Shown: positions 959 to 26,832, counted from the stretch's first letter. The stretch is 64,000 nucleotides of DNA from Eubacteriales bacterium (GCA_045127235.1 JBGVPY010000062.1:992-64991); one strand, 5' to 3'. Translations and numbers: made by a program. The notes: a model not told the origin generated them from the letters alone.

Positions 959-965
959 GGAGAAA

Positions 966-2850: not shown

Positions 2851-2868
2851 CACACAGTTACAGGTGGG

Positions 2869-4379: not shown

Positions 4380-6896
4380 ATGAAAAGGAAAATTTTATTT
4401 GCACTTTTCCTTGCGGTATTTTTTACACTTGTATTTGTAATTTCTGCAAATGCAACGGTATATTATTACGAGGAAGGCAACAGCGAAGCTCCAATGTTTC
4501 AGTATGAAACAAAAGTCTCAAATTATGACTCTAAGCATATTTTGATTGATACTTATATTGGTGAATTTCCAAAAGCCGATGCAAACGGAAACGCCCTCAC
4601 TTGGTATGTTACATCAACAACCCAAAGTGGCGGCAATACAATTAAAACCGTAAAAAGCGTTTTAACCACAGATGAAAGATATTTCACAATTTCATCGGAC
4701 GGTGCTTACAGCTATGGCGGAACAGCGGGTACACCTGTTACTCAGTATAATGTTGTATCTGTTAATTTCCCACAAAATGGCGGAATTAAAACATTAAATT
4801 TACAAAATGATGGATACAGGGTAGGCAATATTTATAGCTACGACTATAACTCAACGGAAATTTTGTTTCTCTATCTGCCAAACACCTTGACCGCCTTGAA
4901 TGAAAGAATTGTTCAAAACACAAAGGTTTTAGTGTGCGATATTCCTTTTGAAATTACTGCAAAGGAAATTTCACATGTTGCATTCTATCATGCAAAGAAT
5001 TTAAGAGAGATTAATATTCCAATAACCGTTAAATCAATTAACGGCAAAAACGAAGCTGACGGCTCTGCATTTTTAGGCTGCGAGCAGCTTGTAAGAGTTA
5101 ATTTTCATAAGGACTCTGCGCTTGAATCAATTGGCGCATATGCATTTAACAAGTGCGATAGCCTACGCGAGGTTGTTTTTCCTGATTCACTTAAAGATGT
5201 TGGAGCCTATGCATTTTATTTAACAGGACTTACTCAGTCCCCCTTTACAATGAATTCAAAAGCAACCGTGGGCGATAGTGCATTTGGACAATGTACAAAT
5301 CTTAAGAACTTCATCGTTCCTGCGGGGGTAACTGAATTAAACGCTATGAATATGCTATTTGGTTGCTCAGAAATTCAAAAAATTGAGTTTGCCAACAATT
5401 CTCAGCTTCAAAAAATTTCTGATAACTCCTTCCGCGCCACAAATAACGCATCATTTTCTAAGCTAAAGTATATCATCTTGCCGGATTCTGTTACACATGT
5501 TGGTAATGGGGCTTTCTATAATGTACCGATTGAAACTAATCCATTCGGTGTTGATTCTAGATGCACATACATTGGCCATGCAGCATTTTTAGGTACAAGA
5601 ATTACGGAAGTAAATATTCCTAAGAACGCGCAATTTAATATGGGCGCGGACGGTAAGCTTTCAAAGGAAGGCGTTTTCTCACATTGTTCACTTCTTAGAA
5701 CGGTTAATTTCCGCGAGGATTCTACAACAACCGCACTTCCAAAGTATATGTTCGCTTATTGCTCAAATCTTACTTATGTTAAGATTCCAAATAGCGTTAC
5801 AACAATGTCAATTCGTACCTTTGATAGATGCGTGTCATTGCACACGGTTATTCTTGGCGCAAAGGTTGAGTTTATGAACTGGGGCAGAAATGATTCAGGC
5901 GAGGACCATGCAAGCTTCTTCTATAACTGTCTTAGCTTGAAAAATGTATATTTGCCAAGAACCATTGACATTACAAGAATAGAAAGAAATCAATGCCACT
6001 TCTTTACAACCGCTGATAGCGCTATCGGAGGTACATACAAAAAGGTTGCGTATTTCTTTGATGGCACACTTGAAGAGGCAGAAGCTCTTAAAGCAGCATT
6101 CTCAACACAGGTTACATCTTGCGGCAGAAATGACAGAATTACATCTGCTGAAATTATATCGTTAGCAGCGTTTAATGAAAAGTTCCCGGATAGAACGGTT
6201 GATTACGATAAGAACTATATTGTATATGGTGTTAACACCTGCGACGCGTTCTATAATGGCGTTCATGATGCTACCGATGATGGAAGCTGCACAACAGCGT
6301 TGACCTGCAAAAATTGCCAAATAACCGTTACTCCATCATATGACTCTCACAATTATGAAACCGAAATCAAATATCCAAAGGGATATACACAAAGCGGATA
6401 TATAAGAAATAGCTGCGTAAGATGCAGCTCATACACAGAGGAAGCGCTTGCTCCTTTATTTGAGTGCCTTGGATATTCAACCCCGGAGAGCAATAAAAGC
6501 GGAATTACAATTGGCTTTATAGTAAACAACGAAGCAATAGAAAAATATCAGAGCCTTACAGGCAAAGCCTTAAAGTATGGCGCTTTTGCAGTAGCACAGG
6601 AAAAGCTTGGCACAAACGATATTTTTGGCGAAAACGACACAGTAGTGAACGGTGCTATTACCGCTGAAATCACATCTTATGAATTTTCTTCCTTTGATCT
6701 TAAAATCGTAGGCTTTACTGATGAATACAAGGATGATAAGCTTGCTCTTGGCGCTTACATAATTACAAATAACGGCGAGGCTAACGAATATTCATATCTC
6801 CAGTCAGGCACGCCAAATGAAAACGAAAAATATTGCTTTGTTTCATATAACGATATTATAGGAAAGATTTCAACGAATGAAGAGGTGGCACAATGA
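4380..6896 (+). CDS. P1: secreted BspA-type leucine-rich-repeat protein with Cys-knuckle and shared C-terminal module
   Basis: Signal peptide MKRKILFALFLAVFFTLVFVISANA. Repeated AFxxCxxLxxIxIPxSVxxIGxxAF LRR_5-like units. CxxC pairs, then the module at 6456-6893 that is shared with five paralogs. Confidence 0.85.
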   Translation: MKRKILFALFLAVFFTLVFVISANATVYYYEEGNSEAPMFQYETKVSNYDSKHILIDTYIGEFPKADANGNALTWYVTSTTQSGGNTIKTVKSVLTTDERYFTISSDGAYSYGGTAGTPVTQYNVVSVNFPQNGGIKTLNLQNDGYRVGNIYSYDYNSTEILFLYLPNTLTALNERIVQNTKVLVCDIPFEITAKEISHVAFYHAKNLREINIPITVKSINGKNEADGSAFLGCEQLVRVNFHKDSALESIGAYAFNKCDSLREVVFPDSLKDVGAYAFYLTGLTQSPFTMNSKATVGDSAFGQCTNLKNFIVPAGVTELNAMNMLFGCSEIQKIEFANNSQLQKISDNSFRATNNASFSKLKYIILPDSVTHVGNGAFYNVPIETNPFGVDSRCTYIGHAAFLGTRITEVNIPKNAQFNMGADGKLSKEGVFSHCSLLRTVNFREDSTTTALPKYMFAYCSNLTYVKIPNSVTTMSIRTFDRCVSLHTVILGAKVEFMNWGRNDSGEDHASFFYNCLSLKNVYLPRTIDITRIERNQCHFFTTADSAIGGTYKKVAYFFDGTLEEAEALKAAFSTQVTSCGRNDRITSAEIISLAAFNEKFPDRTVDYDKNYIVYGVNTCDAFYNGVHDATDDGSCTTALTCKNCQITVTPSYDSHNYETEIKYPKGYTQSGYIRNSCVRCSSYTEEALAPLFECLGYSTPESNKSGITIGFIVNNEAIEKYQSLTGKALKYGAFAVAQEKLGTNDIFGENDTVVNGAITAEITSYEFSSFDLKIVGFTDEYKDDKLALGAYIITNNGEANEYSYLQSGTPNENEKYCFVSYNDIIGKISTNEEVAQ

Positions 6897-7042
6897 AATA
6901 CGTAACACCAAAATATGAAAGCATTCTTATAGCAACGAAAGACGTTGTAACCGCTTCAACATCAGCCCAAAAATATGAAGTTGAACAAAACAACGACGGA
7001 AGCGGCAATGTTATAATGAGAGCATTAGACTTATTTAAATAA
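6893..7042 (+). CDS. conserved 49-aa small protein, cassette copy 1 (not in ORF track)
   Basis: MKYVTPKYESILIATKDVVTASTSAQKYEVEQNNDGSGNVIMRALDLFK. Its ATG overlaps the P1 stop (caATGA). SD GAGGTG lies 5 nt upstream inside the P1 tail, and the stop sits 8 nt before the terminator. Four paralogs all have identical length. Confidence 0.75.
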   Translation: MKYVTPKYESILIATKDVVTASTSAQKYEVEQNNDGSGNVIMRALDLFK

Positions 7043-7050
7043 AACATAAA

Positions 7051-7082
7051 CCCGTGCAGATTTCTCTGCACGGGTTTTGTTT
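7051..7082 (+). terminator. rho-independent terminator of cassette 1
   Basis: cccgtgcag/ctgcacggg stem followed by ttttgttt. Confidence 0.8.
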
Positions 7083-7096
7083 ATACAAAAGCGATA

Positions 7097-7888
7097 TTAC
7101 ACCGATACTATTACAAGCTCAACCTTTTCTTTATCGAAGTGCTTTTTTATTTCATCTGAAATTTGATTTTTGTCATCTGTTATGATTGTGTCAAAATCTG
7201 ATATTTTTGCAAAGCGACATATGGAATTTTTGCATATCTTGTTGCTTTCGGCAATTAAAACAGAGGTGCTTGAACGTTCAATCAACTTCTTTGAATATGA
7301 GCATTCATCAAGACTGTACGAGGATACCGCATCAATGGATATTGCTGTGCAGGAAACAAAGGAAACGTCAAAATAATAATCATTTAACCTGTCGGTGGCA
7401 AATGCACCCTTTGAAAAACGGTTTTGAATATCCAATTCTCCGCCAATAAAAATGATGCGACCGGTAATTTCTTCCGTGTTAAATTTATTCAGCAATATGC
7501 TTGCAATTGATATGGAGTTTGTAACGAAGGTAACATTTTTCACTCCGCTAACACTGCTTGCGATTGACTGTATGGAAACTCCGGCATCAAAGGCAACAAC
7601 GCTTCCGTCCTGTATCATAGATGCCGCACGCATTCCGATTGTTAATTTTTGTTGTTGATTTGACTTGATTCTCAACAAATAATCCTCATCCTTGCGGCAA
7701 GAGGGTTTGCTTAAAATAGCGCCGCCACGCACCTTTTTTACTAAATTATCCTTGCAAAGCTTGTTTATATCGCGCCTTATGGTTTCAATGGATACGTCAA
7801 ATTTTTTAGCAATATCCGATATGGAGGCAAAGCCACGCTCCTTGGCAACAGACAGTATGTAATCTTGTCTTTCTTCAAGTCCTATCAT
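7097..7888 (-). CDS. DeoR-family transcriptional regulator
   Basis: N-terminal HTH (ISDIAKKFDVSIETIRRDINKL) plus a C-terminal DeoR sugar-phosphate sensor domain. Divergent from P2. Confidence 0.85.
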   Translation of the reverse strand: MIGLEERQDYILSVAKERGFASISDIAKKFDVSIETIRRDINKLCKDNLVKKVRGGAILSKPSCRKDEDYLLRIKSNQQQKLTIGMRAASMIQDGSVVAFDAGVSIQSIASSVSGVKNVTFVTNSISIASILLNKFNTEEITGRIIFIGGELDIQNRFSKGAFATDRLNDYYFDVSFVSCTAISIDAVSSYSLDECSYSKKLIERSSTSVLIAESNKICKNSICRFAKISDFDTIITDDKNQISDEIKKHFDKEKVELVIVSV

Positions 7889-8235
7889 ATTTCAATCCTC
7901 GTTTTTTATTTAATTATACTATGGCAAAATATTTTTTTCAATAGAATAATGAATAAAATGTTGAATTTTGTGTTGAGTTTTTTGAAAAGTCAACAAAACA
8001 CAACAAATATTCGTTAAAACATAGAAAAAATAAATAAATACTTGAAAATTCTTTTACAATAATTTACAATAAAGTTGTACATGTATGTATATACACTTAA
8101 AAATATCAACTATCAATGTTGAATTTGCAACATCATAATTGATTTGTGAATATAAAACAAAGTTGATTAAATTTGCTTTATGGCATATCTTTAATGCCAA
8201 ATAACATTATAAAATATTTTTTTGGAGGAGAAATT

Positions 8236-11200
8236 ATGAAAAAAACACTTTTAATTCTTGCGTTTGTGCTATCATTGATTTTTGTTTTTTCTATTGTATC
8301 CTTGGCTCAAGAAACGGAAAATACATACTATGTAGTGCAAAGCGAAGAATCAGAGCTTGCAGCATCGCTGCTAGCGGAGGGAAAAAGTATTGTCGGTATT
8401 GACAAGCTTTACTCTTCACCATCAAATGCCATGGCTGAAAATTCCACTTATTTTATCAGTCAATTTGACGGCAAGACACTTAATCTTATTCTTGCCGAGA
8501 ATGTAAGCCATCGCGCAGGAAATGACTCAGGACCAAGGGCAACGGGTATTCGTCTTGACAAGGCGGTTACATTAAACGTGTACTTTAACGGTCATAGCTG
8601 GTGGATTCCCGATGATAATAACTATTCCGGCTTTTTCGTTAACAATCAAAATGCGCATCTTTCTTTAATAGGAAACAGAACCTTAGAAGAGGTTAGCGCA
8701 CCATTTGACCCAAACAGCGTAAGTGCAACGGTCAAATCGCCAAAGGTTGACTATTACGGCGGATACGTTGGACTTTATATTGAAAAAGGTGACGTAACTG
8801 TTAAAAATGCAGTTATTATCGGTCATGATGAGCTTATTTATCAAAGAAATGATTCTGCTTCAGGTACAACCGTTCTTACTCTTGATACTTGTATGGTTAG
8901 AATTAAAAATTCAAAATATGACCCGATTTCTCTTAAATGTGAGGGCAACGGTAGCAGTGCGACCGCCAGTGCAACAATAAGATTTAATCATCTTTACACT
9001 GATGACGTTCAAATCAATAACGTTTTGCCTGACAGTTACATTAATAACAGCGTAATAAAAACATTTTATACAGATAGCTGGCACGCAGATGACAGAATAG
9101 GCAAGGACTATATTTATATTAACAATACCACGATAAATGAATATACGACTTATGGCGACTGTCAACATCCAATTGCTAAAAATTCAACTTTCGGTAAGAT
9201 TAATTTAACGGGAGACACATCAGGCGGTGCTTACGCAACGCTTATAGATAGCACTTATACGGAATTATATCTTGTAAGAAGATATGCAGAACCGAAAAGA
9301 AACGGTATTCTCTATATTGTAACGGAAGCAGATTGCGAAAATGCAGCCACAAGAATAGTATATACCTATGACGATGAAACAAAAGCAAACGTATCAAGCA
9401 TAGATGAGGAATATCAAAAAAACAACCCTGCATTGGGCCATAGCACAAAAGATAAACCTTTGACAGTATCATATACAAGCTTCCTTGAAAAGGGCGACGG
9501 TTTATTTGTATGTGACGTGTGTTCAAAAGAATACGAGGGCGAAGTAAATCCTTTATTTACCTTCCTTGGCTATTCAGTATATGAGGGTGCAGGCGCTTCG
9601 GTTGCCATAGGATACAAAATAGATACAGAAGCATTAAAAATATACGAAGAAGTAACGGAAAAAACACTTAATTACGGCGTATATGCAGTATCAAAGGATA
9701 AAATAGGCGACAGAGATATCTTTGGCGCAGACGGAAAAGCGTCAGAGGGCGTTATCAACGCTGATTTAACAGAATTTAATTTCAGAACAATTGAACTTAA
9801 AATCAAGGGTATTTCAGATGAATACAAAAATTCAAAGCTTGCTATGGGCGTGTACGTTATGGAAAACGATGGAGAAAAAACATCCTATTCATATTTACAA
9901 TATGGCAATATAGCTGAAAATGAAAAATACAGCTTTGCTTCATATAATGAAGTTTTAGAAGCTATGCCACCTGAAATCATTCCGTTTGAGGATATCGAGG
10001 TTGTGGTAGGAGACAAAATATCACTACCAAAAACTGTTTTTGTAAACGGCGTGGAAAAGTCTTTGACATACACTTTTGACAGCTCAAGTATTTCCATTGA
10101 GGACTACGTTCTCACAGGTCTTTCACACGAAAATAATGTAAAGGTAACAGTAAGCGGTAAAGGCATTCAAGGCGAATTTAACGTAACCGTAAGAGATTAC
10201 TCTATTTACAAATACGTAGTAGTAATCGGTGTTGACGGAGCGGGTGCATACTTTGCAAATGCCAATACACCAAACCTTGACAAAATCTTTGCAAACGGAG
10301 CATTAACGTATAACTGTTTAACCTCTAATCCTACAATAAGTGCTCAATGTTGGGGCTCACTCCTTCACGGTGTAACACCTAATCTTCACGGTCTTACAAA
10401 CGATAATGCAGCATCAGGCGCTTATCCAAACGACTCAAGTTACCCAAGCTTCTTCCGTGTAATTCGCGAAAATAACGCAAATGCAGTTCTAGCATCATTT
10501 GCAGGTTGGAATCCAATTAACGTTGGTATAGTAGAGGACGATATCGGCGTTTACAAAAAAGGCGGTATGTCCGACTCTAATTTAACAGCGGAAATTCTTG
10601 CATATCTTGCTCAAAACAATCCGGATGCTATGTTTATTCAATTTGACGAAGCAGATGCAGCAGGCCACTCATCAGGCTACGGCACAGCAGCTCAACTTGC
10701 TAAAATAGCTGAGATAGATGCTTATATCGGTCAAATTTATGATTCATACATGCAAAAAGGAATCCTTAATGAAACATTGTTTATCGTTACTTCTGACCAT
10801 GGCGGAAACGGAACAAATCATGGTGGATTAACAGATACGGAAAAATACGTTATGTTTGCTGCAACAGGCAAGACAGTTGTCAGCGGTACAATAAGCGATA
10901 TGGAAATTCGTGATACTGCTGCTATCGTTCTTCATGCATTAGGCTATGAACAACCTGAAAAATGGTCAGCAAGAGTTCCTTCTAATTTATTTAACGGTAT
11001 TGAAGCACCATTACACCGCCCTGGAACTATGCCTGGCCGTTACCACGAAACAGAAGCAACCCCTGAAAAGGGCAGTCAGGGCTACGTAACCAATTTTGTG
11101 GATAACAAATTAAATACGTATTTGACATTTGACGGAAACGTAACCGATAGCTGCGGTGGAAATACAACTCCACATAATACAATTACATATAAGGATGGAT

Positions 11201-11748
11201 ATTACGGACAGGGCGCAGCACTTAATGGAGGCTACGTAACTCTTGAAGATTTTGATCCGTCCATGGAAAGCTTTACTATGTCCTTCTGGATGAAAGCAAG
11301 CTCTATTTCATCAGACCCGTGTATTATTTCCAATAAAAACTGGGATTCGGGACAAAATACAGGCTTTGCATTAACATTTATAAACAAAAACGGCATTATT
11401 AACGTAAGGTTAAATTACGGTGAAAATAGAAATAAGCGTGCCGATTGCGATTTTGCTCTTCCAAGCGATTACACAAACGGATGGGTGCATATAATAGCCA
11501 TATTTGACCGTGAAAACAATAAGCTTGGATTAAGTGTTGATTTTGCGGACATTAAAACAAGCAATATTCCCGAAAACCTTCAAGGTACTTCTCTTGATGC
11601 CGGTTTGAAAACCAACATCGGTCAAGACGGTAGAGGCACATATAATCGTGCTTTACCTGCAACCATCGATGAATTTATGATTTTCGAGGGCGCATTTACG
11701 CAAGAGGATGTAAATGCACTTATGGAATATTACGGAATGAAAAATTAG
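8236..11748 (+). CDS. P2: secreted multidomain protein with the shared module placed internally, followed by a type I phosphodiesterase (alkaline-phosphatase superfamily) domain and a LamG/ConA-like domain
   Basis: SD GGAGGAG and ATG 8236 give signal peptide MKKTLLILAFVLSLIFVFSIVSLAQE. Module at 9553-9963. Phosphodiesterase motifs VIGVDGAGAYF, PTISAQCWGSLLHGV, FDEADAAGHSSG, TSDHGG. C-terminal Laminin_G_3-like region (SFTMSFWMKA ... IDEFMIFEGAFT). Confidence 0.85.
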   Translation: MKKTLLILAFVLSLIFVFSIVSLAQETENTYYVVQSEESELAASLLAEGKSIVGIDKLYSSPSNAMAENSTYFISQFDGKTLNLILAENVSHRAGNDSGPRATGIRLDKAVTLNVYFNGHSWWIPDDNNYSGFFVNNQNAHLSLIGNRTLEEVSAPFDPNSVSATVKSPKVDYYGGYVGLYIEKGDVTVKNAVIIGHDELIYQRNDSASGTTVLTLDTCMVRIKNSKYDPISLKCEGNGSSATASATIRFNHLYTDDVQINNVLPDSYINNSVIKTFYTDSWHADDRIGKDYIYINNTTINEYTTYGDCQHPIAKNSTFGKINLTGDTSGGAYATLIDSTYTELYLVRRYAEPKRNGILYIVTEADCENAATRIVYTYDDETKANVSSIDEEYQKNNPALGHSTKDKPLTVSYTSFLEKGDGLFVCDVCSKEYEGEVNPLFTFLGYSVYEGAGASVAIGYKIDTEALKIYEEVTEKTLNYGVYAVSKDKIGDRDIFGADGKASEGVINADLTEFNFRTIELKIKGISDEYKNSKLAMGVYVMENDGEKTSYSYLQYGNIAENEKYSFASYNEVLEAMPPEIIPFEDIEVVVGDKISLPKTVFVNGVEKSLTYTFDSSSISIEDYVLTGLSHENNVKVTVSGKGIQGEFNVTVRDYSIYKYVVVIGVDGAGAYFANANTPNLDKIFANGALTYNCLTSNPTISAQCWGSLLHGVTPNLHGLTNDNAASGAYPNDSSYPSFFRVIRENNANAVLASFAGWNPINVGIVEDDIGVYKKGGMSDSNLTAEILAYLAQNNPDAMFIQFDEADAAGHSSGYGTAAQLAKIAEIDAYIGQIYDSYMQKGILNETLFIVTSDHGGNGTNHGGLTDTEKYVMFAATGKTVVSGTISDMEIRDTAAIVLHALGYEQPEKWSARVPSNLFNGIEAPLHRPGTMPGRYHETEATPEKGSQGYVTNFVDNKLNTYLTFDGNVTDSCGGNTTPHNTITYKDGYYGQGAALNGGYVTLEDFDPSMESFTMSFWMKASSISSDPCIISNKNWDSGQNTGFALTFINKNGIINVRLNYGENRNKRADCDFALPSDYTNGWVHIIAIFDRENNKLGLSVDFADIKTSNIPENLQGTSLDAGLKTNIGQDGRGTYNRALPATIDEFMIFEGAFTQEDVNALMEYYGMKN

Positions 11749-11761
11749 TTGAGGTGATATA

Positions 11762-11911
11762 ATGAAATACGTAACGCCAAAATATGAAAATGCAATTATA
11801 GAAACAAAAGATATTATAACCGCCTCAACCAACAAGTTTGAAATCCAAAATGATAATAACATCGAAGGCAAAGGCAATATCATAATGAACGCATTAGACA
11901 TCTTTAAATAA
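11762..11911 (+). CDS. conserved 49-aa small protein, cassette copy 2 (not in ORF track)
   Basis: MKYVTPKYENAIIETKDIITASTNKFEIQNDNNIEGKGNIIMNALDIFK. SD GAGGTG 5 nt upstream, 13 nt after the P2 stop, terminator follows. Confidence 0.75.
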   Translation: MKYVTPKYENAIIETKDIITASTNKFEIQNDNNIEGKGNIIMNALDIFK

Positions 11912-11918
11912 AGTAAAA

Positions 11919-11947
11919 ACCGTGCAGAGAAATCTGCACGGTTTTAT
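11919..11947 (+). terminator. rho-independent terminator of cassette 2
   Basis: accgtgcag/ctgcacggt stem followed by tttat. The stem sequence is related to the cassette 1 terminator. Confidence 0.75.
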
Positions 11948-12028
11948 CAATTTATAGGTGTTATTTTTAAGCGCCATGAAAACAGCTTATTACATAACAA
12001 TAGAAAATTGCCATTATTTTTAATAAAA

Positions 12029-12859: not shown

Positions 12860-12932
12860 TTTTATCCCTCCTTTTCTTTGTAATTATACCACAAAAAACC
12901 ACTTTTGTCCATATTTTGCCAAAAAAATCATA

Positions 12933-12961
12933 TTGTTTTTGCTACTGCTTAATGCTATAAT
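12933..12961 (+). promoter_or_regulatory. candidate promoter for the GH2-P3 transcription unit
   Basis: TTGTTT, 17 nt spacer, TATAAT with a TGn extension. Confidence 0.4.
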
Positions 12962-13070
12962 CAAGTTGTGAAGCAAGATATGTGTAAAAAATTGTTATTT
13001 AATATAGATTGTATAAATACAAGGCTTTTATATTTTATAATTAAAATGAAAGAAAGAGGTGCTTAGTGAA

Positions 13071-14792: not shown

Positions 14793-14887
14793 TCAAACAT
14801 CTTATGATTAAGTAATTGTTTAATGAAAAATCAATGCAGTTATTAAACAGTTTTTAATAAAAAATAATTTGAAAAGGAGAAATTAAA

Positions 14888-16699
14888 ATGAAAAAGAAAC
14901 TATTGATAGCCTTATTTATAGTTGTTTTTGCGTGTGTTCTCTCATTTACAGTTTGCGCATCAAACGAGGTAACATTAGTAGGTGGAGAAAAGGTTGACTT
15001 TGAGACCGTTTTTAAGGTTGGTAAAAGCGGTGGAGTTGATAATGTTGTAACCGGTTTTAACACAGGCTACAACAATAATAGCATGACAGATGTAATCTTC
15101 CCTGACTACCTTGCAGGAATTGAGTGCAACGGACTTTTTGGCAAATATGCAAATCCGGCATCAACAACCATCAAAACTCTTACATTTGAATCAACAGACG
15201 AGTTTTTTATCAGTGGAGATAACATTTTCTCTGGAATTCCAATCACAAAGGTAACCTTTAATCCTAACTGTGTAGTGGAAATGAGAAAGGGCAACTTTTC
15301 AGGTTGTACAAGTCTTACAGAAATAACTTTTCCAAAGTTTAGAAAGCTATCATCAAATGCCTTTGCAAACTGCTCTAATATGGTAGCCACTAACTCAATT
15401 GTTTTTGTGGAGGGCATGACCGAAATTGGTGGCGATGCATTTAATGGCTGCAGTAGTCTTAACGGAACTATTGTTTTTCCATCAACTTTAACAACAATAA
15501 AAGACGAGGTGTTTAGAGGTACAAGTATAGAAGCGTTTGACTTTAGCAAGTGTGCGAATTTAAGTAGTATTAGTCAGGCTGCATTTACTCAGTGCGATTC
15601 ACTTACCACTATCGATATGAGTGCTTGCGTAGGATTGACAAGCTTGAGTAATAATTTTGCCGAAAACTGTGATGAACTAATTAGTGTAATTTTGCCACCT
15701 AATTTGGAGTCTATACCTTATAAGGCTTTTGCTCATTGCTATAAAATGCAATCAATCGTACTCCCTGCAAGCATGAAAACCGTAGCTGATGAGGCATTCC
15801 ACACAGCAAGAAAAAATCAAGATATAAAGACTTTTACGGTATATGTTCAAGGTAATGTTGTATTCCATGAGAAATATTCATTCCGTGATTCAAGTGCAAA
15901 AATTGAATTCGTTTTGATTGGAAATGGTGTTACTGCACAAAGTTTTAAGGCTGCAAATACTTATTCGGCTATTACAGGTGCTACCGTAGTTGATTATGTA
16001 GGAGGCGAAAATCCATGGACTTATGTTCCCGGTCAAGCAATAACAAGCCACACTATCGTAGATAACTACTGTAAGCCACTTGCGTTAACAGGAGAGCATT
16101 TGTCTGATGCAAATCCATGCGTAATTAACTGTTCAAGCTGTGGATTAGTATCAGCAAAGGAAAATCCTGTTCATACTGTATCGTCATCTATCGCATACGC
16201 AAACGGATATGACAATGTTGGAGTTAAAACTATAATTTGTACCAATAAGGGTTGTAGTCATAAGGAAACGGTTGAGGTAAAAGAGCTCTTTGTTTGCCAA
16301 GGCTATTCAGCTCCTGAAAAGGGCAGCGGTGGAATTACAATAGGATTTACCATAAACAACCAAGCAATTAAAGAATATGAAACTTCAACAGGAAAAACCT
16401 TAAAATACGGCGCGTTTGCGGTAGCAAAGTCTAAGCTAGGTACAAACGATATTTTTAGCAAAGATGGCACAGTAGCAGACTATGCTATTACTGCTGAAAT
16501 CATTTCTTATGAATTTTATTCCTTTGATCTTAAAATTGTAGGCTTTACAGATGATTACAAAGATACGAAGCTTGCTCTAGGTGCTTATGTAATTACAACC
16601 GACGGCAAGACTAACGAATATTCATATATTCAAGAAGGCGCGCCTATACAAAACGAAAAATATGCATTTATCTCATATGGCGAAATTATGAATGCATAA
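14888..16699 (+). CDS. P3: secreted BspA-type LRR protein with Cys-knuckle and shared C-terminal module
   Basis: Signal peptide MKKKLLIALFIVVFACVLSFTVCAS, LRR_5-like repeats, CVINCSSC ... CTNKGC, module at 16286-16696. Confidence 0.85.
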   Translation: MKKKLLIALFIVVFACVLSFTVCASNEVTLVGGEKVDFETVFKVGKSGGVDNVVTGFNTGYNNNSMTDVIFPDYLAGIECNGLFGKYANPASTTIKTLTFESTDEFFISGDNIFSGIPITKVTFNPNCVVEMRKGNFSGCTSLTEITFPKFRKLSSNAFANCSNMVATNSIVFVEGMTEIGGDAFNGCSSLNGTIVFPSTLTTIKDEVFRGTSIEAFDFSKCANLSSISQAAFTQCDSLTTIDMSACVGLTSLSNNFAENCDELISVILPPNLESIPYKAFAHCYKMQSIVLPASMKTVADEAFHTARKNQDIKTFTVYVQGNVVFHEKYSFRDSSAKIEFVLIGNGVTAQSFKAANTYSAITGATVVDYVGGENPWTYVPGQAITSHTIVDNYCKPLALTGEHLSDANPCVINCSSCGLVSAKENPVHTVSSSIAYANGYDNVGVKTIICTNKGCSHKETVEVKELFVCQGYSAPEKGSGGITIGFTINNQAIKEYETSTGKTLKYGAFAVAKSKLGTNDIFSKDGTVADYAITAEIISYEFYSFDLKIVGFTDDYKDTKLALGAYVITTDGKTNEYSYIQEGAPIQNEKYAFISYGEIMNA

Positions 16700-16713
16700 G
16701 CAATGAGGTAAAA

Positions 16714-16863
16714 ATGAAATACATTACCCCAAAATATGAAAATGCAAGCATTTTAGCAAAGGATATTATAACCGCCTCAAAAGGTAAGTTTGAAATCCAA
16801 CACGACCTTAATGAACAGGGCAAGGGCAATATCATAATGAATGCATTAGATATATTTAAATAA
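16714..16863 (+). CDS. conserved 49-aa small protein, cassette copy 3 (not in ORF track)
   Basis: MKYITPKYENASILAKDIITASKGKFEIQHDLNEQGKGNIIMNALDIFK. SD GAGGTA, 14 nt after the P3 stop. Confidence 0.75.
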   Translation: MKYITPKYENASILAKDIITASKGKFEIQHDLNEQGKGNIIMNALDIFK

Positions 16864-16898
16864 TTAAAAGCCGTGTGGAATTTTCCACACGGCTTTTA
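16729..16898 (+). repeat. dispersed near-identical DNA repeat (small ORF plus terminator), partner at 21750-21919
   Basis: Colinear at a constant offset of 5021 nt. By eye there are only about 2 mismatches. Identity stops right after the terminator. Confidence 0.85.
16869..16898 (+). terminator. rho-independent terminator of cassette 3
   Basis: agccgtgtgg/ccacacggct stem followed by tttat. Identical to the cassette 4 terminator. Confidence 0.8.
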
Positions 16899-16972
16899 TG
16901 GTGCTTATAAGACTTATAAAATATCATATAAAATAAAAAACATTTATTAATATGCAAAGCACAAAGAACCTT

Positions 16973-17713: not shown

Positions 17714-17798
17714 TTTGACCTCTTTGTTATCATAATGATTAGAAAATGTATGTGTTTAATCACAAATTGAGCATTTTGTTCAGGATTTTTTAAAAATA

Positions 17799-17827
17799 TT
17801 GACAAATTTGCTCAAATGTATTATAAC
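17799..17827 (+). promoter_or_regulatory. promoter for P4 with an overlapping imperfect inverted repeat (candidate DeoR operator)
   Basis: TTGACA, 17 nt spacer, TATAAC. The repeat aaattgagca (17764-17773) / tgctcaaat (17810-17818) brackets the -35 element. Confidence 0.5.
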
Positions 17828-17860
17828 ATAATTAGATACTAAAAATCAAGGAGAGATTTT

Positions 17861-20800
17861 ATGAAAAGCATTTACAAAAGATTCCTTTGTCTTATTCTTG
17901 CTTTAATAATGGCGCTTGGCGTAATTCCAAGCGTAGCGTTTACCGCTTTTGCAAGCGAGGGCGAGGTGACGGAGGAGACAGAGACTCTTGTTGACAGAAC
18001 AAAGGAGCCTGTCACCATTACAAACGGCGATTATTCGCTTACGGTTAATAAAACCGTATTTGAGGTTGGAGAGCCAATTTACGTTTCCGCAACGGGAGCC
18101 CACGCCCAATCCTGGGTTGGACTTTACAGCACGACGGGCGTAAGCGCGGGAGATTCATCCCTCGTTTGGAAAAACTTATCAAGCGCAGGTCAGGGCGTTA
18201 CCTTTGATCTTGTGTCCCAATACGACAAGCAAGAGGATAGCACCTTTGAATTTGTAGACGGTGCGCTTCCCGAGGGCGAATATATTATTCGTTTATTCGG
18301 AGATGGCTCATCAAATGCAAGCTCAGTTAAGGCGCTTGTTCACATTAAGGTTGGTAATCCACCTGATATTTCAGGCGAGCAAGGTGTACTTGAAATTGAG
18401 GACAGAGCAGTATCAAGCGGCGATCCCGTTATGGTTAGCGCAGATCTTTTATATAACGATACGTGGGTAGGCGTTTATGCTTACGGCAACTACTCAAAGA
18501 GCTCGTTGTTATGGTATTGGGTAAGAACTCCGGGCGATGGCGTTGCTTATAACGCCGTATCCGGCAGAACTCTTTCAGGCGGCGCGTATTTAGTAAGACT
18601 TTGTCCGCACGATGGCTCAGGCTTTGGTAATGACATTGCAAATGCACTTGTAATCGTTGAGGATGAATACAATGTATCATACCTTAGCAGAATGGCGGTC
18701 GTTGATGATAACACAGGTGGCACAGAGGATGTCGGCGGTGGCACGGAAAATCCAGACACACCAGACACACCTGATACACCTGATACACCTGATACACCGG
18801 TTACACCAGACACACCGGTTACACCTGATAGCACCGTTACATTTGAGGAAAGCAGAAGCGCAGTTAAGCTTGCAAACGGCGAGTTTGAGCTTTGTGTAAA
18901 CAAAACCGTATTTAAGGTAGGCGAGCCTATTTTAGTTTCAGCTAAGGGACCTAATGTCCTTGACTGGATTGGAATTTATAGAGTACAGGACAACGCCTCA
19001 ATTAAGTATCAGTTTGTTGATAATGTAGGCGATGGCGTTTGGTTTGATATCACTAATAATTACATAGAGGGCGGGAAATACAAGGAGTACGGCTCACTTC
19101 CCGAGGGCGAATATGTAATCCGCTTACAATCAAATAATAGCGACTATCTTGAGGGCAACCGTGCTCTTGTTAAAATTAAAATCGGAAATCCTGATACTGA
19201 TAAAGCATTTGGAAATAGTGAACTTTTAAGCACAGACAAAAACATATATAAGCCAGGCGAGGCAATTATGGTAACTCCTTCTATGGTTGAGGGACATAAT
19301 GACTCATGGGTTGGCATTTACGGATTTGACTACTTCCACAAGGGTGGCTCTATTCGTTGGGAGTGGGTAAAAACCAATGGCGACGGCGTTGCGTTTGATA
19401 TTACAGGCGGTAATACATTTGCTCCTGGAGTGTATCTAATTCGCTTGCTTCCATACGACACAGGCGATATGAATACAGTTGTTGCTTACAAAATGGTAAT
19501 TATTGAGGGCGATACGGTCGTTTCCTATGAATCCGTAGTAACAGATAAAAACCTTGGCATAGCCCCTCCAACGTACGAGGGAAATAGCAGCGTTACAGTT
19601 TCAAACGATACACACTCACTTACAGTAAATAAAACAAAATTTGATGTGGGCGAGGAAATTTTAGTTTCCGCAGTAGGCGTTCACGCTAAGGACTGGATCG
19701 GTATTGCACAGCGTAATAATAATGAAGCAACAATCCGTTGGTATTACATTGCAGATGTAGGTAACGGAGAGAAATACGATATTAGAAGCGCGCCAAACAT
19801 CGGAGGAAACCTTGGTCATTTAAAGGATTTACCCGAAGGACCTTATACAATCTACCTTGTTGAAAAGGACGGATATTTAAAGAACGGCTATACCTTTAGC
19901 ATAAATGTTTCAATAGGTGACATAGAGGATGCAGATAACGGCAAAACAGAGGGCGGTACACAAACAGGCGGTAACACACCTGCTTATGGAGTTATTCCGC
20001 CAATAAGCGCAGTATATGTACCAAGCATAAACGGATATGCGGCTGGCACAGCCACCGTTACTATGCCAATAGAAGCCCTTAACTCCCATAACATCCTTAT
20101 GTATTGGGGAAATGAAAACGGTATTCTTGAGGGATATACTCCCCATGCGCGCTTTAAGGCTACAAGCACAACCGCATCATATACCTTTACTAAGAGCGTT
20201 ATTATTCCTAAGGATGCTACTAAGCTTTTAATTTATTCACAAAAGAGCTCAACAGGCGAAATGTCAAGTGAGTATGTAACAGTTGAATTGCCACAAGGCT
20301 CACAAATGAACATTACAAGTAATAAGATTACATCATTCTATGCAATTAGTGATGTTCACATCGGCTCTGCAAACGGAGCAAAGCATTTTAAGCTTATGCT
20401 TAAGGATGCGGTTTCATTAAATCCTAATGGCGTAGCTATCTTTATAGCAGGCGATATTGCAGATAACGGCAGAGAGGATCAATATGCACAAGCAATCGCA
20501 ATTCATAGTGAGGTAATGACAGAAATGGGCGTAAATGCAAGTGATTACCCAATGTTCTTTGCAATCGGCAACCACGATTACCCTGCCGCTACAAGTGCAT
20601 TCCTATCATATGCAGTTTTACCTGATGGCACTCATCCAACAGATACATGCTACGATTTTTGGTTTAACGGCTATCATTATATTATGCTTGGTAGTGACAG
20701 TCCATCAGGACTTAATGCAACATTTACCGAGGAAACACTTGCATGGCTTGATACAACACTTGCACAAGGCAGAGATGAAGGCAAGCCAACATTCATTTTC

Positions 20801-21718
20801 CTACATCAGCCTATATTTAATACAGTTTCAGGTAGCTTACCTGGAGAGGGCTGGCACGGAGTTACAAATGAGGATGCATTCAAGGCGGTAATCAGTAAGT
20901 ATCCTGAAATTATAATGTTTAACGGACACACCCACTGGGAAATGAATTCTAAAGGCAATATGTTTGATGCCACAGAGGAGCTTCCAATAAACATCTTTAA
21001 CTGCGCATCAGTTAGCTATTTATGGAGTGGCTTTAATAAGACAACAGGCGAGCATCTTGACGGTAGCCAAGGCTACTATGTTGAGATTTACAGCGACAGA
21101 GTAGTTGTAAAGGGACGCGATTTTGTAAATGCTAAGTGGATTGCATCTGCACAATATTGTGTTGAATTACAACAAGGCACTGATGAAATAGAGCATAATT
21201 ATGAAATTAAGGATATTACCTATTCAAACGGATATGGTAAGGCAGGAAAAATAACATATGAATGCTTAGATTGTCATATAATCAAGGAGGAAATTGCTCC
21301 TGCGCTTATTGAATGTCTTGGATATTCAATGCCTGAGGATGGCAGAGGACAAATTGCAATCGGCTTTGACATAAACAGCGAAGCAATTAAGGAGTACGAA
21401 GAGATAACAGGCAAAACCTTAAAATACGGTGCATTTGCAGTAGCACAGGAAAAGCTTGGCACAAGCGATATTTTTAGCGAAAACGGCACAGTAGCAAACT
21501 TTGCAATTGCAGCTGAAATCACATCTTATGAATTTTCTTCCTTTGAGCTTAAAATCACAGGCTTTACGGATGAATACAAGGACGATAAGCTTGCTCTTGG
21601 TGCTTATGTAATAGCAACTGATAAGGACATCACAGAATATTCATATATTCAACATGGCGAGCCTAAACAAAACGAAAAGTATGTATTTACTTCATATGAC
21701 GAGGTTGTAAATTCATAA
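17861..21718 (+). CDS. P4: secreted protein with five WxGxY beta-sandwich-like repeats, a PDT linker, a calcineurin-like metallophosphoesterase domain and the shared C-terminal module
   Basis: Signal peptide. Repeats contain VNKTVFxVGEPIxVSA...DWIGIY...LPEGEYxIRL. Metallophosphoesterase motifs ISDVHIG, GDIADNG, GNHD, LHQP, GHTHW. Module at 21305-21715. Confidence 0.85.
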   Translation: MKSIYKRFLCLILALIMALGVIPSVAFTAFASEGEVTEETETLVDRTKEPVTITNGDYSLTVNKTVFEVGEPIYVSATGAHAQSWVGLYSTTGVSAGDSSLVWKNLSSAGQGVTFDLVSQYDKQEDSTFEFVDGALPEGEYIIRLFGDGSSNASSVKALVHIKVGNPPDISGEQGVLEIEDRAVSSGDPVMVSADLLYNDTWVGVYAYGNYSKSSLLWYWVRTPGDGVAYNAVSGRTLSGGAYLVRLCPHDGSGFGNDIANALVIVEDEYNVSYLSRMAVVDDNTGGTEDVGGGTENPDTPDTPDTPDTPDTPVTPDTPVTPDSTVTFEESRSAVKLANGEFELCVNKTVFKVGEPILVSAKGPNVLDWIGIYRVQDNASIKYQFVDNVGDGVWFDITNNYIEGGKYKEYGSLPEGEYVIRLQSNNSDYLEGNRALVKIKIGNPDTDKAFGNSELLSTDKNIYKPGEAIMVTPSMVEGHNDSWVGIYGFDYFHKGGSIRWEWVKTNGDGVAFDITGGNTFAPGVYLIRLLPYDTGDMNTVVAYKMVIIEGDTVVSYESVVTDKNLGIAPPTYEGNSSVTVSNDTHSLTVNKTKFDVGEEILVSAVGVHAKDWIGIAQRNNNEATIRWYYIADVGNGEKYDIRSAPNIGGNLGHLKDLPEGPYTIYLVEKDGYLKNGYTFSINVSIGDIEDADNGKTEGGTQTGGNTPAYGVIPPISAVYVPSINGYAAGTATVTMPIEALNSHNILMYWGNENGILEGYTPHARFKATSTTASYTFTKSVIIPKDATKLLIYSQKSSTGEMSSEYVTVELPQGSQMNITSNKITSFYAISDVHIGSANGAKHFKLMLKDAVSLNPNGVAIFIAGDIADNGREDQYAQAIAIHSEVMTEMGVNASDYPMFFAIGNHDYPAATSAFLSYAVLPDGTHPTDTCYDFWFNGYHYIMLGSDSPSGLNATFTEETLAWLDTTLAQGRDEGKPTFIFLHQPIFNTVSGSLPGEGWHGVTNEDAFKAVISKYPEIIMFNGHTHWEMNSKGNMFDATEELPINIFNCASVSYLWSGFNKTTGEHLDGSQGYYVEIYSDRVVVKGRDFVNAKWIASAQYCVELQQGTDEIEHNYEIKDITYSNGYGKAGKITYECLDCHIIKEEIAPALIECLGYSMPEDGRGQIAIGFDINSEAIKEYEEITGKTLKYGAFAVAQEKLGTSDIFSENGTVANFAIAAEITSYEFSSFELKITGFTDEYKDDKLALGAYVIATDKDITEYSYIQHGEPKQNEKYVFTSYDEVVNS
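18752..18829 (+). repeat. in-frame tandem 9-bp repeats encoding a (PDT/PVT)n linker
   Basis: ccagacaca ccagacaca cctgataca cctgataca cctgataca ccggttaca ccagacaca ccggttaca cctgat. Confidence 0.9.
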
Positions 21719-21875
21719 ATAACGAGGTGCAAAAATGAAGTACATTACACCAAAATATGAAAATGCAAGCATTTTAGCAAAGGATATTATAACCGCCTCA
21801 AAGGGTAAGTTTGAAATCCAACATGACCTTAATGAACAGGGCAAGGGCAATATCATAATGAATGCATTAGATATA
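21305..21875 (+). repeat. dispersed high-identity DNA repeat (module 3' part, spacer and small ORF), partner at 26253-26823
   Basis: Colinear at a constant offset of 4948 nt with no indels and scattered, mostly third-position differences. Confidence 0.85.
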
Positions 21876-21884
21876 TTTAAATAA
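21735..21884 (+). CDS. conserved 49-aa small protein, cassette copy 4 (not in ORF track)
   Basis: Protein identical to copy 3. SD GAGGTG, 16 nt after the P4 stop. Confidence 0.75.
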   Translation: MKYITPKYENASILAKDIITASKGKFEIQHDLNEQGKGNIIMNALDIFK

Positions 21885-21889
21885 TTAAA

Positions 21890-21919
21890 AGCCGTGTGGA
21901 ATTTTCCACACGGCTTTTA
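21890..21919 (+). terminator. rho-independent terminator of cassette 4
   Basis: agccgtgtgg/ccacacggct stem followed by tttag. Confidence 0.8.
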
Positions 21920-21995
21920 GAATAAAGAAAATATCTATTTACCATATGATATTATGTTTTTTGAATATTAAATCATACATTTATATCGAAAACAC

Positions 21996-22026
21996 TTGAC
22001 ATTAACCTTAGGTAATAGTTTAATAT
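21996..22026 (+). promoter_or_regulatory. MerR-type promoter with a 19-bp spacer and an internal palindrome
   Basis: TTGACA (21996-22001), 19 nt spacer, TAATAT (22021-22026). The spacer contains ACCTtAGGT. Confidence 0.55.
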
Positions 22027-22038
22027 TATTATAAGGGG

Positions 22039-23766: not shown

Positions 23767-23775
23767 AATTTATTT

Positions 23776-24981: not shown

Positions 24982-25076
24982 TATATTTTTACAAAATTTG
25001 CAAAAAACTCTTGACTTTGACCCAAGGGAAGGGTTTATACTTAAAATGGTAAAAATACAAATTAAGGAGAAAGAGA

Positions 25077-26666
25077 ATGAAGAAGAAACTATTTTTAACA
25101 GCTGTTATGGTGTTTATTTTTGTTATGATGCTTGCTTTTGCGGTATCCGCTGATTCAGTTCATAACGAAAACACAGTTGATTACAACTCAAAGGTTACAC
25201 TTAATGACGGGACTGTGCTTCCGATATACGATGAAAATAAGGATGCGCTTATTTGGTATATCGACGGAAAAGACGAAAGCGGAAACCCAATTTATTCATC
25301 CGCCCCTACCGACAAGGTTGCTTATTGGTACACAGAGAGTTGGAATGAGGTGACGGGCTTTGATGTAGTGCTTGAAAACGGAACGAAAATTGAAAGAAAT
25401 AACGTGGTAGTAGTTAACATGATGGATGACGATGTTGTAAAGAACGCCGGCCCTGGTACTAAGTATTACGGAGAACCTGTTAAAGATTTCAAAAATATGA
25501 TTAATTCTAGAAAAAATCTTGAATACTGCTTTTTAAGACTTGATACAAGTACTATCAACAATGGTACCTTTGCAGGATGTCCTAAATTGAAGTACATAAA
25601 TTTAGAAAGTTTGACAAATCTTAAAAGAATGGCACAACACAGTCAATTTTCCGGATGTACAAGTTTGTTTGACGGACAGGTGCTCGACCTTACAAAAACT
25701 CAATTATACGAATTTGAGGGCAACGAAACATTTAAAGGCGTTCCGGTAAAAGGAATAAAATTCCCGGAAACAATGAAAAAGATAGGTTCGGGAAGCACCT
25801 TTGCTAACTGCTCAAAACTTGAATTTATTTCGGTAGGTAACAAGTTAACGACAATGGGTGGCGAAGCATTTAGTGGTTGCACATCACTCAAAGCAATTTA
25901 TTACGTTGGCACACAAGACGAATTAAATGCTTCACCAATCAATAGAGTAGTTACTGATGCTACAATAAAATCATACAATGAATACAAATCACTTACCGAT
26001 ATAAGCGGAGTGTATGTAGTATATAATTACAGTAGATGTATTGCTTTTAATAACGGTGTTCACGGCGAGGCGATTTTAGCAAATGCTTGTGTAGGCAATT
26101 GCTTGGTATGTGGTGATGCAATGGTTAACCATAACGAAGTAAAAAATCTTTCCGTAACAATTACATATAAAAACTACGGCATTAACGGCGAAAAAGTAAC
26201 TGTTTGTAACAACAAAGATTGTGGATACAAAGAAACAAAAGTTGCTCCCGCACTTATTGTTTGTCGTGGTTACTCTGCACCTGAAAATGGCAGAGGTGGA
26301 ATTGTAATCGGCTTTGATATAAACAGCGAAGCAATCAAAGATTACGAAACAACAACAGGCAAAACCTTAAAATACGGTGCTTTTGCAGGAGCACAGGAAA
26401 AGCTTGGCACAAGCGATATTTTTAGCGAAAACGGCACAGTAGCGAACTACGCTATTGCCGCTGAAATCGCATCTTATGAATTTTCTTCCTTTGAGCTTAA
26501 AATCACAGGCTTTACAGATGAATACAAGGATACAAAGCTTGCTCTTGGCGCTTATGTAATAGCAATCGATAAGGACATCACCGAATATTCATATATTCAA
26601 CATGGCGAGCCTAAACAAAACGAAAAGTATGTATTTACTTCATATGATGAGGTTGTAAATTCATAA
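25077..26666 (+). CDS. P5: secreted BspA-type LRR protein with Cys-knuckle and shared C-terminal module
   Basis: Signal peptide MKKKLFLTAVMVFIFVMMLAFAVSA, LRR_5-like units, CVGNCLVC ... CNNKDC, module at 26253-26663. Confidence 0.85.
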   Translation: MKKKLFLTAVMVFIFVMMLAFAVSADSVHNENTVDYNSKVTLNDGTVLPIYDENKDALIWYIDGKDESGNPIYSSAPTDKVAYWYTESWNEVTGFDVVLENGTKIERNNVVVVNMMDDDVVKNAGPGTKYYGEPVKDFKNMINSRKNLEYCFLRLDTSTINNGTFAGCPKLKYINLESLTNLKRMAQHSQFSGCTSLFDGQVLDLTKTQLYEFEGNETFKGVPVKGIKFPETMKKIGSGSTFANCSKLEFISVGNKLTTMGGEAFSGCTSLKAIYYVGTQDELNASPINRVVTDATIKSYNEYKSLTDISGVYVVYNYSRCIAFNNGVHGEAILANACVGNCLVCGDAMVNHNEVKNLSVTITYKNYGINGEKVTVCNNKDCGYKETKVAPALIVCRGYSAPENGRGGIVIGFDINSEAIKDYETTTGKTLKYGAFAGAQEKLGTSDIFSENGTVANYAIAAEIASYEFSSFELKITGFTDEYKDTKLALGAYVIAIDKDITEYSYIQHGEPKQNEKYVFTSYDEVVNS

Positions 26667-26682
26667 ATAATGAGGTGTAAAA

Positions 26683-26832
26683 ATGAAGTACATTACACCA
26701 AAATATGAAAATGCAAGCATTTTAGCAAAGGATATTATAACCGCCTCAAAGGGTAAGTTCGAAATCCAACACGACCCTAATGAACAGGGCAAGGGCAATA
26801 TCATAATGAATGCTTTGAATATTTTCGGATAA
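26683..26832 (+). CDS. conserved 49-aa small protein, cassette copy 5, with an altered C-terminal end (not in ORF track)
   Basis: MKYITPKYENASILAKDIITASKGKFEIQHDPNEQGKGNIIMNALNIFG. SD GAGGTG. The last residues and the downstream DNA diverge from copies 3 and 4, and the usual terminator is missing. Confidence 0.7.
   Translation: MKYITPKYENASILAKDIITASKGKFEIQHDPNEQGKGNIIMNALNIFG

Follow-up and report, generated by a model that had tools for sequence, protein, structure and literature searches.

A family of peptides of about 49 residues encoded behind surface proteins that share a Cys-rich and predicted beta-sandwich domain in Eubacteriales

Several secretion chaperones are encoded beside the genes of their substrates. 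These include the type III class I chaperones SycE and SicP, the partners Lap1 and Lap2 of LXG proteins in the type VIIb secretion system (T7SSb), and the redox enzyme maturation proteins (REMPs) of the twin-arginine translocation (Tat) pathway. In phages, the assembly chaperones of tail fibres and receptor-binding proteins are encoded just downstream of them, as with Tfa of lambda and Mu or gp38 and gp57A of T4. Large surface proteins of gut Clostridia, BspA-type leucine-rich repeat (LRR) proteins included, rank with the most abundant products of these bacteria and with the least understood. Here we describe five genes for such proteins in a stretch of 64,000 nucleotides (the window) from an Eubacteriales bacterium (GCA_045127235.1 JBGVPY010000062.1:992-64991), each followed directly by a gene for a peptide of 49 residues. 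The module couples a small accessory protein to an exported one, and the family of the peptide and that of its partner domain are both undescribed. In layout, and by analogy, it appears to work most like the secretion chaperones and escorts or the tail-fibre assembly chaperones.

Like SycE, SicP, Lap1, Lap2 and the REMPs, the peptide is a small, mildly acidic, separate chain without signs of export, encoded by an adjacent and probably co-expressed gene. It may also, as those escorts do, connect substrates that vary with a machine that is conserved. Unlike their substrates, the upstream proteins found here have ordinary Sec signal peptides, and no components of type III secretion (T3SS), T7SS or Tat were seen. 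The peptide is also shorter, with about 49 aa against approximately 100-150 aa, and has no relationship to them in sequence or fold. With the tail-fibre chaperones it shares a small gene placed directly 3' of a large adhesin-like gene, in modular cassettes that recombine readily. Those chaperones act on the C-terminal domain of the adhesin, and the relation of the peptide to its partner domain may be a parallel to this. Contrary to them, it has no matches in viral contigs or PHROGs, and its partner is exported by Sec, so any help in folding would come before export.

The peptide genes had been pointed out in an earlier note, made from the sequence alone, as five intact ORFs (open reading frames) of 49 codons. 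On translation, we reproduced all of the coordinates, lengths and motifs. The genes and their Shine-Dalgarno (SD) sites are the following:

6893..7042, plus strand: peptide gene copy 1, 49 aa, "type A", beginning YEVEQNNDGSGNVIM; its ATG overlaps the upstream stop as ATGA
6882..6887, plus strand: SD site of copy 1, GAGGTG, within the EEV codons at the end of the upstream ORF
11762..11911, plus strand: peptide gene copy 2, 49 aa, "type B", beginning FEIQNDNNIEGKGNIIM; upstream stop 13 nt before
16714..16863, plus strand: peptide gene copy 3, 49 aa; upstream stop 14 nt before
21735..21884, plus strand: peptide gene copy 4, protein the same as copy 3, with 4 synonymous differences; upstream stop 16 nt before
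26683..26832, plus strand: peptide gene copy 5, with the C-terminal NALNIFG; upstream stop 16 nt before
11751-11756, 16705-16710, 21724-21729 and 26672-26677, plus strand: SD sites of copies 2 to 5, GAGGT(G/A)
32382..32420, plus strand: remnant of a sixth peptide gene, IIMNAFDIFRTK and a stop, overlapping the stop of ORF 30226-32388

All five peptides start with MKY[VI]TPKYE, contain a KD[IV][IV]TAS core and end with GN[IV]IM[NR]AL[DN][LI]F[KG], with 23 of the 49 alignment columns invariant. The GAGGT(G/A) sites lie 4-5 nt before the ATG in every copy, and the overlap of copy 1 is with the stop of ORF 4380-6896, both as had been noted before. By inspection, and again in agreement with the note, the peptides have no Cys, no transmembrane segment and no signal peptide. 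Their N-terminus is hydrophilic, and the chain as a whole has neither a cationic nor a hydrophobic character.

A tblastn search of the window found no sixth intact copy and one decayed copy, the remnant at 32382-32420. Here the last ~10 codons survive (IIMNAFDIF), followed by RTK and a stop. An ATG in the remnant is preceded, at 7 nt, by an AGAGGA-like SD site, and translation from it could yield a product of 10 aa, MNAFDIFRTK.

The 49-aa ORFs are genuine protein-coding genes under purifying selection. The ratio of non-synonymous to synonymous substitution rates (dN/dS, Nei-Gojobori) has a median of 0.20 and a maximum of 0.54 over 93 pairs, taken from the five copies and 11 homologues of other genomes. 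Copies 3 and 4 are separated by 4 synonymous and 0 non-synonymous changes. The synonymous ACA/ACG difference at Thr5 between copies 1 and 2, which the earlier note took as consistent with selection on the protein, is present, and the selection itself is borne out by the dN/dS values together with the behaviour of the reading frame. Pooling 22 homologues, pN/pS (the corresponding ratio of proportions) is 0.38 for residues 2-22, 0.46 for residues 23-37 and 0.33 for residues 38-49, so the whole peptide is constrained. Length differences among the homologues are in frame without exception, and fall at two sites, one immediately following S22 and the other within the loop of residues 32-37. The plus frame, and no other, is open in all 23 homologues examined; the best antisense frame is open in 13. 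Coding on the antisense strand was rejected, as that frame is broken in 10 of the 23.

As for the size of the family, homology searches had been proposed along with the dN/dS calculation. A word-seeded search of 5.8 billion proteins returned 46 clusters at 90% identity, 42 of them with 47-51 aa. An exhaustive search with a hidden Markov model (HMM) over 1.84 billion cluster representatives returned 86 clusters at 50% identity (E<=1e-3), nearly all with 44-60 aa. The family is still recognisable at 35-50% identity in distant lineages. Where the databases give any name, it is "hypothetical protein"; this is how identical sequences are labelled in JGI-derived data, and the NCBI copies are unnamed. 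There is no significant match to the peptide in Pfam, NCBIfam, PHROGs, PADLOC or the PDB sequences. The best matches below threshold, DUF4265 (E=0.036) and phrog_34042 (E=0.035), were treated as noise. Searches of the literature by sequence string, by concept and in the supplement of a human-microbiome small-gene catalogue returned no description of the peptide or the module. An RNA element was rejected, as Rfam has no match in the window and the only structures are the terminators described below. A phage origin was also rejected, with no relative among viral contigs.

Considering now the upstream proteins, Sec-type signal peptides are seen by inspection on all five. A Cys-rich module followed by a domain of ~135 aa, which we call the CTD (C-terminal domain), is common to all of them. 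Since their passenger domains are unrelated, the CTD is the sole element that they have in common. The earlier note had already tied the peptide to the secreted protein upstream, and this stands as its constant neighbour; the shared Cys-rich and CTD module had been missed. The genes are:

4380..6896, plus strand: partner 1, 838 aa, signal peptide, BspA-type LRR_5 repeats; Cys-rich module and CTD at 6204-6887
8173..11748, plus strand: partner 2, 1191 aa, signal peptide; internal CTD at 9352-9966, then type I phosphodiesterase and Laminin_G_3
14888..16699, plus strand: partner 3, 603 aa, signal peptide, LRR_5; CTD at 16112-16693
17861..21718, plus strand: partner 4, 1285 aa, signal peptide, calcineurin-like phosphoesterase, three internal repeats; CTD at 21149-21712
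25077..26666, plus strand: partner 5, 529 aa, signal peptide, LRR_5; CTD at 25971-26660
30226..32388, plus strand: sixth CTD protein, 720 aa, signal peptide, LRR_5; CTD at 31759-32379; its peptide gene is decayed

In total, the window contains six CTDs, five peptide genes and one remnant. The CTD is C-terminal in four of the five partners and internal in the 1191-aa protein. Its consensus reads F.C.GYS.PE..GI.IGF.IN.EAI..YE..TGK.LKYG.FAV...KLALGAY...EYSY.Q.G.P..NEKY.F.SY. In Pfam, the domain matches DUF5067 alone, with E=0.009, which is below the cutoff of that family, and there is nothing in NCBIfam or in the PDB sequences. We found 84 clusters of CTD homologues, all unnamed. The AlphaFold2 model consists of a small beta module and a beta-sandwich, with a mean predicted local distance difference test score (pLDDT) of 91.3 and a predicted template modelling score (pTM) of 0.83. 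In a Foldseek search of this model against the PDB, there was no match with E<=1e-3; the best E-value belongs to DUF3823 (4fxt), with a template modelling (TM) score of 0.31, and the highest TM score listed is 0.38. Judging by the model, the CTD is therefore probably a generic sandwich, similar to immunoglobulin (Ig) domains or carbohydrate-binding modules (CBMs), that lies outside the named families.

Many of the 84 CTD homologues end in ...EEVTQ*, and the same codons hold the SD site and the ATGA of the peptide gene. None of the 84 has the peptide as an in-frame fusion. The peptide as a detached strand or a duplicate of the CTD was rejected, with an hhalign probability of 0.4% and a CTD that is modelled confidently alone. 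A programmed frameshift or read-through fusion was rejected too, because the spacings of -4, 13, 14, 16 and 16 nt make the frame vary and no fused homologue is found.

Some additional observations concern these partner genes. The listed TTG start of the 1191-aa ORF, at 8173, is probably wrong, and the ATG at 8236 is likelier (MKKTLLIL...; MKKTLLILAFVLSLIFVFSIVSLAQE). This ATG begins a typical signal peptide and matches the start of the orthologue in locus L008. In the 1285-aa protein, the repeats have ~240-280 aa each, with DNA repeats at 18018-18129, 18870-18981 and 19599-19710 and the linker PDTPDTPDTPDTPVTPDTPVTPD. The region 18001-20000 has a G+C content of 0.44, compared with ~0.37 in the rest of the window.

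The pairing of peptide and CTD was followed in other genomes. A scan of one genome per species gave 12 loci, all from metagenome-assembled genomes of uncultured Eubacteriales or Clostridia (human gut, goat cecum and water-deer cecum). More contigs came from exact-protein look-ups, and a narrower scan of metagenome contigs gave one locus. HMMs of the CTD and of the peptide were run over the window and a set of 27 loci. In these scans, every peptide gene with readable upstream DNA adjoins a CTD-bearing ORF with a signal peptide, except in L014-L016; in L014 the CTD is recognised by eye only. The spacing behind the CTD ORF goes from a 4-nt overlap up to a 22-nt gap. Most of the first 12 loci have the ATGA stop-start overlap, with the GAGGT of the SD site encoding the EEV of the ...EEVTQ* tail. 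Over all loci, the main domains of the upstream proteins are BspA-type LRR, phosphodiesterase, metallophosphatase and Glug.

The distant members of the family keep this arrangement. In L017, L020 and L021, the distant peptides also follow CTD ORFs, and the CTDs are likewise diverged. P0099 lies behind a 695-aa protein, P0127 behind a 932-aa Glug protein, P0121 behind a CTD protein, and P0116 behind an LRR_5 protein whose CTD is recognised by eye only. In these four peptides the C-terminal halves are diverged, and the paired CTDs are correspondingly diverged. There is one apparent exception to the pairing, P0117, on a contig of 542 nt. The reverse does not hold, with CTD genes lacking a peptide gene of their own at 30226-32388 in the window, at 9127-10941 in L008, and in L010 and L024. 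In the tandem arrays of the last two loci there is one peptide gene per array, not one per CTD gene. From this pairing, the functional partner of the peptide is very likely the upstream secreted protein, specifically its Cys-rich and beta-sandwich domain.

The loci with unpaired CTD genes also differ in their layout. L008 9127-11050 holds a peptide-less orthologue of window ORF 14888-16699, with a terminator directly after its stop, and then an unrelated membrane-transporter-like gene on the minus strand. L010 1409-6138 has two tandem CTD genes and L024 2563-8150 has three, in both cases with a single peptide gene behind the last.

In terms of transcription, we found intrinsic terminators behind four of the five copies:

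7042..7082, plus strand: intrinsic terminator of copy 1, -25.7 kcal/mol, z = -10.4
11916..11945, plus strand: intrinsic terminator of copy 2, -21.0 kcal/mol, z = -9.1
16865..16898, plus strand: intrinsic terminator of copy 3, -24.7 kcal/mol, z = -7.2
21886..21919, plus strand: intrinsic terminator of copy 4, -24.9 kcal/mol, z = -8.8

With a strong terminator within a few bases of copies 1-4, the peptide gene is the last cistron of its transcription unit. For copy 5, the first 70 nt past the stop contain no strong terminator hairpin. The stems are CCGUGCAGA/UCUGCACGG in copies 1 and 2, and CCGUGUGGA/UCCACACGG in copies 3 and 4. The changes between the two pairs are compensatory, so the hairpin is a conserved part of the module. 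The data support that the peptide gene is translationally coupled to, or at least tightly linked with, the gene of the secreted protein upstream. Coupling had been proposed earlier from the overlap of copy 1, and the same ATGA in most of the other-genome loci strengthens it, either as coupling or as tight linkage. A divergent DeoR or AraC regulator lies upstream of modules 2, 3 and 4 of the window, and similar ORFs are found upstream in many other loci. No C39 peptidase, ATP-binding cassette (ABC) exporter or enzyme for ribosomally synthesised and post-translationally modified peptides (RiPPs) was found near the peptide genes in the window and the 27 loci, which extends to other genomes what the note had said of the window for the first two.

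The peptide itself looks bipartite. Its N-terminal half is strongly conserved, and a linker that varies in length joins this to a beta-hairpin half with "LF" at the end. In a set of 69 diverse members, none departs from P6, and conservation reaches 90% or more at M1, K2, Y3 and S22. Their consensus is MKYxxPKYExxxxETxDIITAS-(0-4 residues)-xxxEIE-(loop)-GxGNxIxxAxxLF. Conservation extends most widely over the N-terminal 22 residues, which are kept in P0116, P0117 and P0127, where the C-terminal halves are unrelated. Modelled alone with AlphaFold2, the peptide has a pLDDT of 66, with an uncertain N-terminal half, a hairpin of residues 28-32 and 38-42 (pLDDT ~80), and a short C-terminal helix. 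A lone-peptide model of such low confidence would fit with folding on binding. The G-x-G before the C-terminal end had been compared, vaguely, with a double-glycine processing site. This likeness is not supported, as the sequence before G36-x-G38 misfits the leader consensus, and the motif is more simply taken as the turn of the predicted hairpin, where the loop indels fall.

As for the role of the peptide, we tentatively propose that it may be a dedicated intracellular partner of the CTD proteins, acting as a chaperone, escort or adaptor. One mRNA would serve for both the peptide and the CTD protein, and the ribosomes that translate them would probably be shared. The peptide would stay in the cytoplasm, where it would bind the freshly made CTD region before or during Sec export. 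The cytoplasmic location is suggested by the missing export signal and by the peptide never being fused to the CTD protein. Its N-terminal half (MKYxxPxYExxxxExxDIxTAS) would dock onto something invariant. The beta-hairpin half would contact the CTD, given that the C-terminal half diverges in the same lineages as the CTD. The peptide probably serves every CTD protein of the cell in trans as well, because near-identical peptides go with differing CTDs and some CTD genes have no peptide gene. What fits the class of secretion escorts is the synteny, the SD site, the stop-start overlap, a peptide that lacks a signal sequence, and a gene placed as last cistron ahead of a terminator.

Several points weigh against a dedicated intracellular partner. 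No dedicated secretion machinery was seen near any of the loci, and Gram-positive Sec substrates are not known to require small substrate-specific chaperones. The CTD alone is modelled confidently by AlphaFold2, and a partner is not obviously required for its fold. Precursors made of leader and core likewise combine a conserved N-terminal half with a C-terminal half that varies more. Phylogenetic distance alone could explain why the C-terminal half diverges along with the CTD. Gene conversion leaves a mosaic, described below, in which the peptide does not co-segregate strictly with most of the CTD. Lastly, we infer both the binding of peptide to CTD and the location of the peptide.

A broader form of the same idea, which we regard as rather unlikely, is an undescribed escort or sorting system in uncultured gut Clostridia, with a bipartite peptide of ~50 aa as a trans-acting sorting tag. 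Here the hairpin half would read the CTD as a tag on unrelated exported proteins, and the N-terminal handle would dock onto a conserved machine. If the peptide is such an adaptor, this would be a new route of protein sorting in monoderm bacteria. In any case, a conserved two-gene module, made of a beta-sandwich domain and a partner of ~50 aa, joins surface proteins that are otherwise unrelated, and offers a testable handle on their export, folding and display. It is also a clear case of a gene of fewer than 50 codons that is missed by annotation and family databases, while being under selection and present in several copies per genome.

An alternative to the intracellular partner is a peptide that is exported and processed, with the N-terminal 22 residues as leader and the C-terminal part (...GNVIMNALDLF) as mature product, which we consider unlikely. 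The product might be RiPP-like, act as a signal peptide, or serve as a ligand of the CTD on the cell surface, with the enzyme or exporter encoded elsewhere in the genome. The N-terminal half is indeed the best conserved part over the 86 clusters, P0116, P0117 and P0127 combine it with unrelated C-terminal halves, and the junction of variable length comes directly after the near-invariant T-A-S. Moreover, Y3-x-x-P6 and a Thr at -2 to S22 resemble the recognition sequence of a lasso leader, a motif too short to be diagnostic. Phenol-soluble modulins and leaderless bacteriocins have no signal sequence and are exported by dedicated ABC transporters, so export without a signal has precedent. With lasso precursors, and other RiPP precursors whose leader is bound by a RiPP recognition element (RRE), the peptide shares a length of ~45-60 aa, a conserved N-terminal Y-x-x-P, a Thr two positions before a small residue, a more variable C-terminal part and several copies per genome.

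The surroundings argue against processing. We surveyed enzymes by running Pfam and NCBIfam on the large ORFs of the window and, in the 27 loci, by the listed Pfam hits of the neighbouring genes. There was no radical S-adenosylmethionine (radical-SAM), YcaO, ATP-grasp or lanthipeptide enzyme, no lasso B or C protein, C39 peptidase or ABC exporter, and no Asn-synthase-like cyclase. The one vaguely related match is the Transglut_core protein at 1573-2850, which is closest to a transglutaminase-related lipoprotein family. Unlike RiPP and lasso precursors, the peptide has no RRE protein nearby; the CTD protein, secreted and either structural or enzymatic, is the one constant neighbour that it has. 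Taking S22 as residue 1, copy 1 has E8, and copies 2-5 have E6 and D10 only, so the ring-acid position fails in four of the five copies. The sequence without Cys, neither cationic nor hydrophobic, also speaks against such a product, and within the main family purifying selection acts on the C-terminal half too, for which a hairpin is predicted.

Three specific precursor types were tried and rejected. For a double-glycine-leader peptide, we found no leader of the LSxxELxxIxGG type and no C39-peptidase ABC transporter. A lasso precursor was discarded as the core lacks Asp or Glu at positions 7-9 in copies 2-5 and no maturation enzymes are adjacent. A pheromone precursor (RRNPP/Phr/PapR, Rgg-SHP or AgrD) is contradicted by the hydrophilic N-terminus, and by the nearby regulators being DeoR/AraC sugar-type and varying between modules.

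Improbable, in comparison with the dedicated partner of CTD proteins, is an antidote of the immunity type, where the peptide would neutralise an activity of the CTD that is harmful inside the producer, such as binding of envelope precursors, until export. The layout is indeed that of toxin and immunity genes, with a small ORF lacking a signal peptide that follows a secreted-protein gene and overlaps its 3' end, and the peptide and the CTD protein are never fused. The architecture of polymorphic toxins is reversed here, with a conserved C-terminal domain behind variable N-terminal domains, and in one protein the CTD is internal. Its predicted Ig- or CBM-like beta-sandwich is unlike toxin folds. 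There is no pairwise specificity, as identical peptides accompany CTDs of ~62% identity, and CTD genes persist with no peptide gene in cis. A polymorphic toxin-immunity pair in the strict sense was rejected on these swapped ends and on the lack of a co-varying immunity protein.

The module 3' ends also recombine. We compared 21158-21946 with 16139-16925, 26106-26894 and 6309-7100. Copies 3 and 4 have 97-100% identity over the peptide gene and terminator, and 73-85% in the CTD; their peptides are identical and their CTD proteins ~62% identical. Copies 4 and 5 have 90-98% identity from mid-CTD to mid-peptide, followed by 76% and 30%. For copies 1 and 4, the identity is 90% in mid-CTD and 48-67% in the peptide. 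In the sequences compared, this mosaic indicates gene conversion among paralogous 3' modules.

It is improbable that the whole is a DNA or RNA 3'-end module, kept for recombination homology or for an ORF whose translation tunes mRNA stability or termination, with the peptide incidental: the breakpoints do differ among copies 3/4, 4/5 and 1/4, 3' remnants of the peptide gene sit at rearrangement scars (32382-32420; L005 8252-8326; L023 2430-2504) and terminators follow directly, and against this the amino acids are conserved despite saturated synonymous divergence (dN/dS ~0.2, pN/pS 0.33-0.46), indels are always in frame with the frame open in 23/23, distant lineages still show the family at 35-50% identity, and a strong SD site is kept at optimal spacing although it fixes the last residues of the CTD protein as EEVTQ. 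Recombination and a functional peptide are mutually compatible, and recombination is better seen as an extra property of the module than as its whole role. The remaining probability falls to functions outside the readings listed here.

The remnants in L005 (8252-8326) and L023 (2430-2504) are start-less 3' halves of the peptide gene, KKYEIEKNDDGSGNIIMNAFDLFR and a stop. They lie directly behind genes for a sigma factor of the extracytoplasmic function (ECF) type and an anti-sigma-like membrane protein with PepSY repeats, and this pair is found just downstream of an intact CTD-peptide module. These 3' halves look like the scar of a cassette insertion or duplication, with the breakpoint within the peptide gene.

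Finally, some of the other genes in the window deserve mention. Upstream of module 1, at 20-4191, there are four plus-strand genes, for which no link to the peptide modules was found. Their products are a coiled-coil protein carrying a NucA/NucB DNase domain, a DUF2625 protein, a transglutaminase-core protein and a protein of 440 aa with no family match. Two ORFs are unusual fusions of a regulator and an enzyme. The first, at 22039-23766 (575 aa), joins a MerR helix-turn-helix (HTH) domain to an FGGY carbohydrate kinase, and the second, at 28586-30193 (535 aa), joins an HTH_3 (Xre) domain to an ADP-ribosylglycohydrolase.

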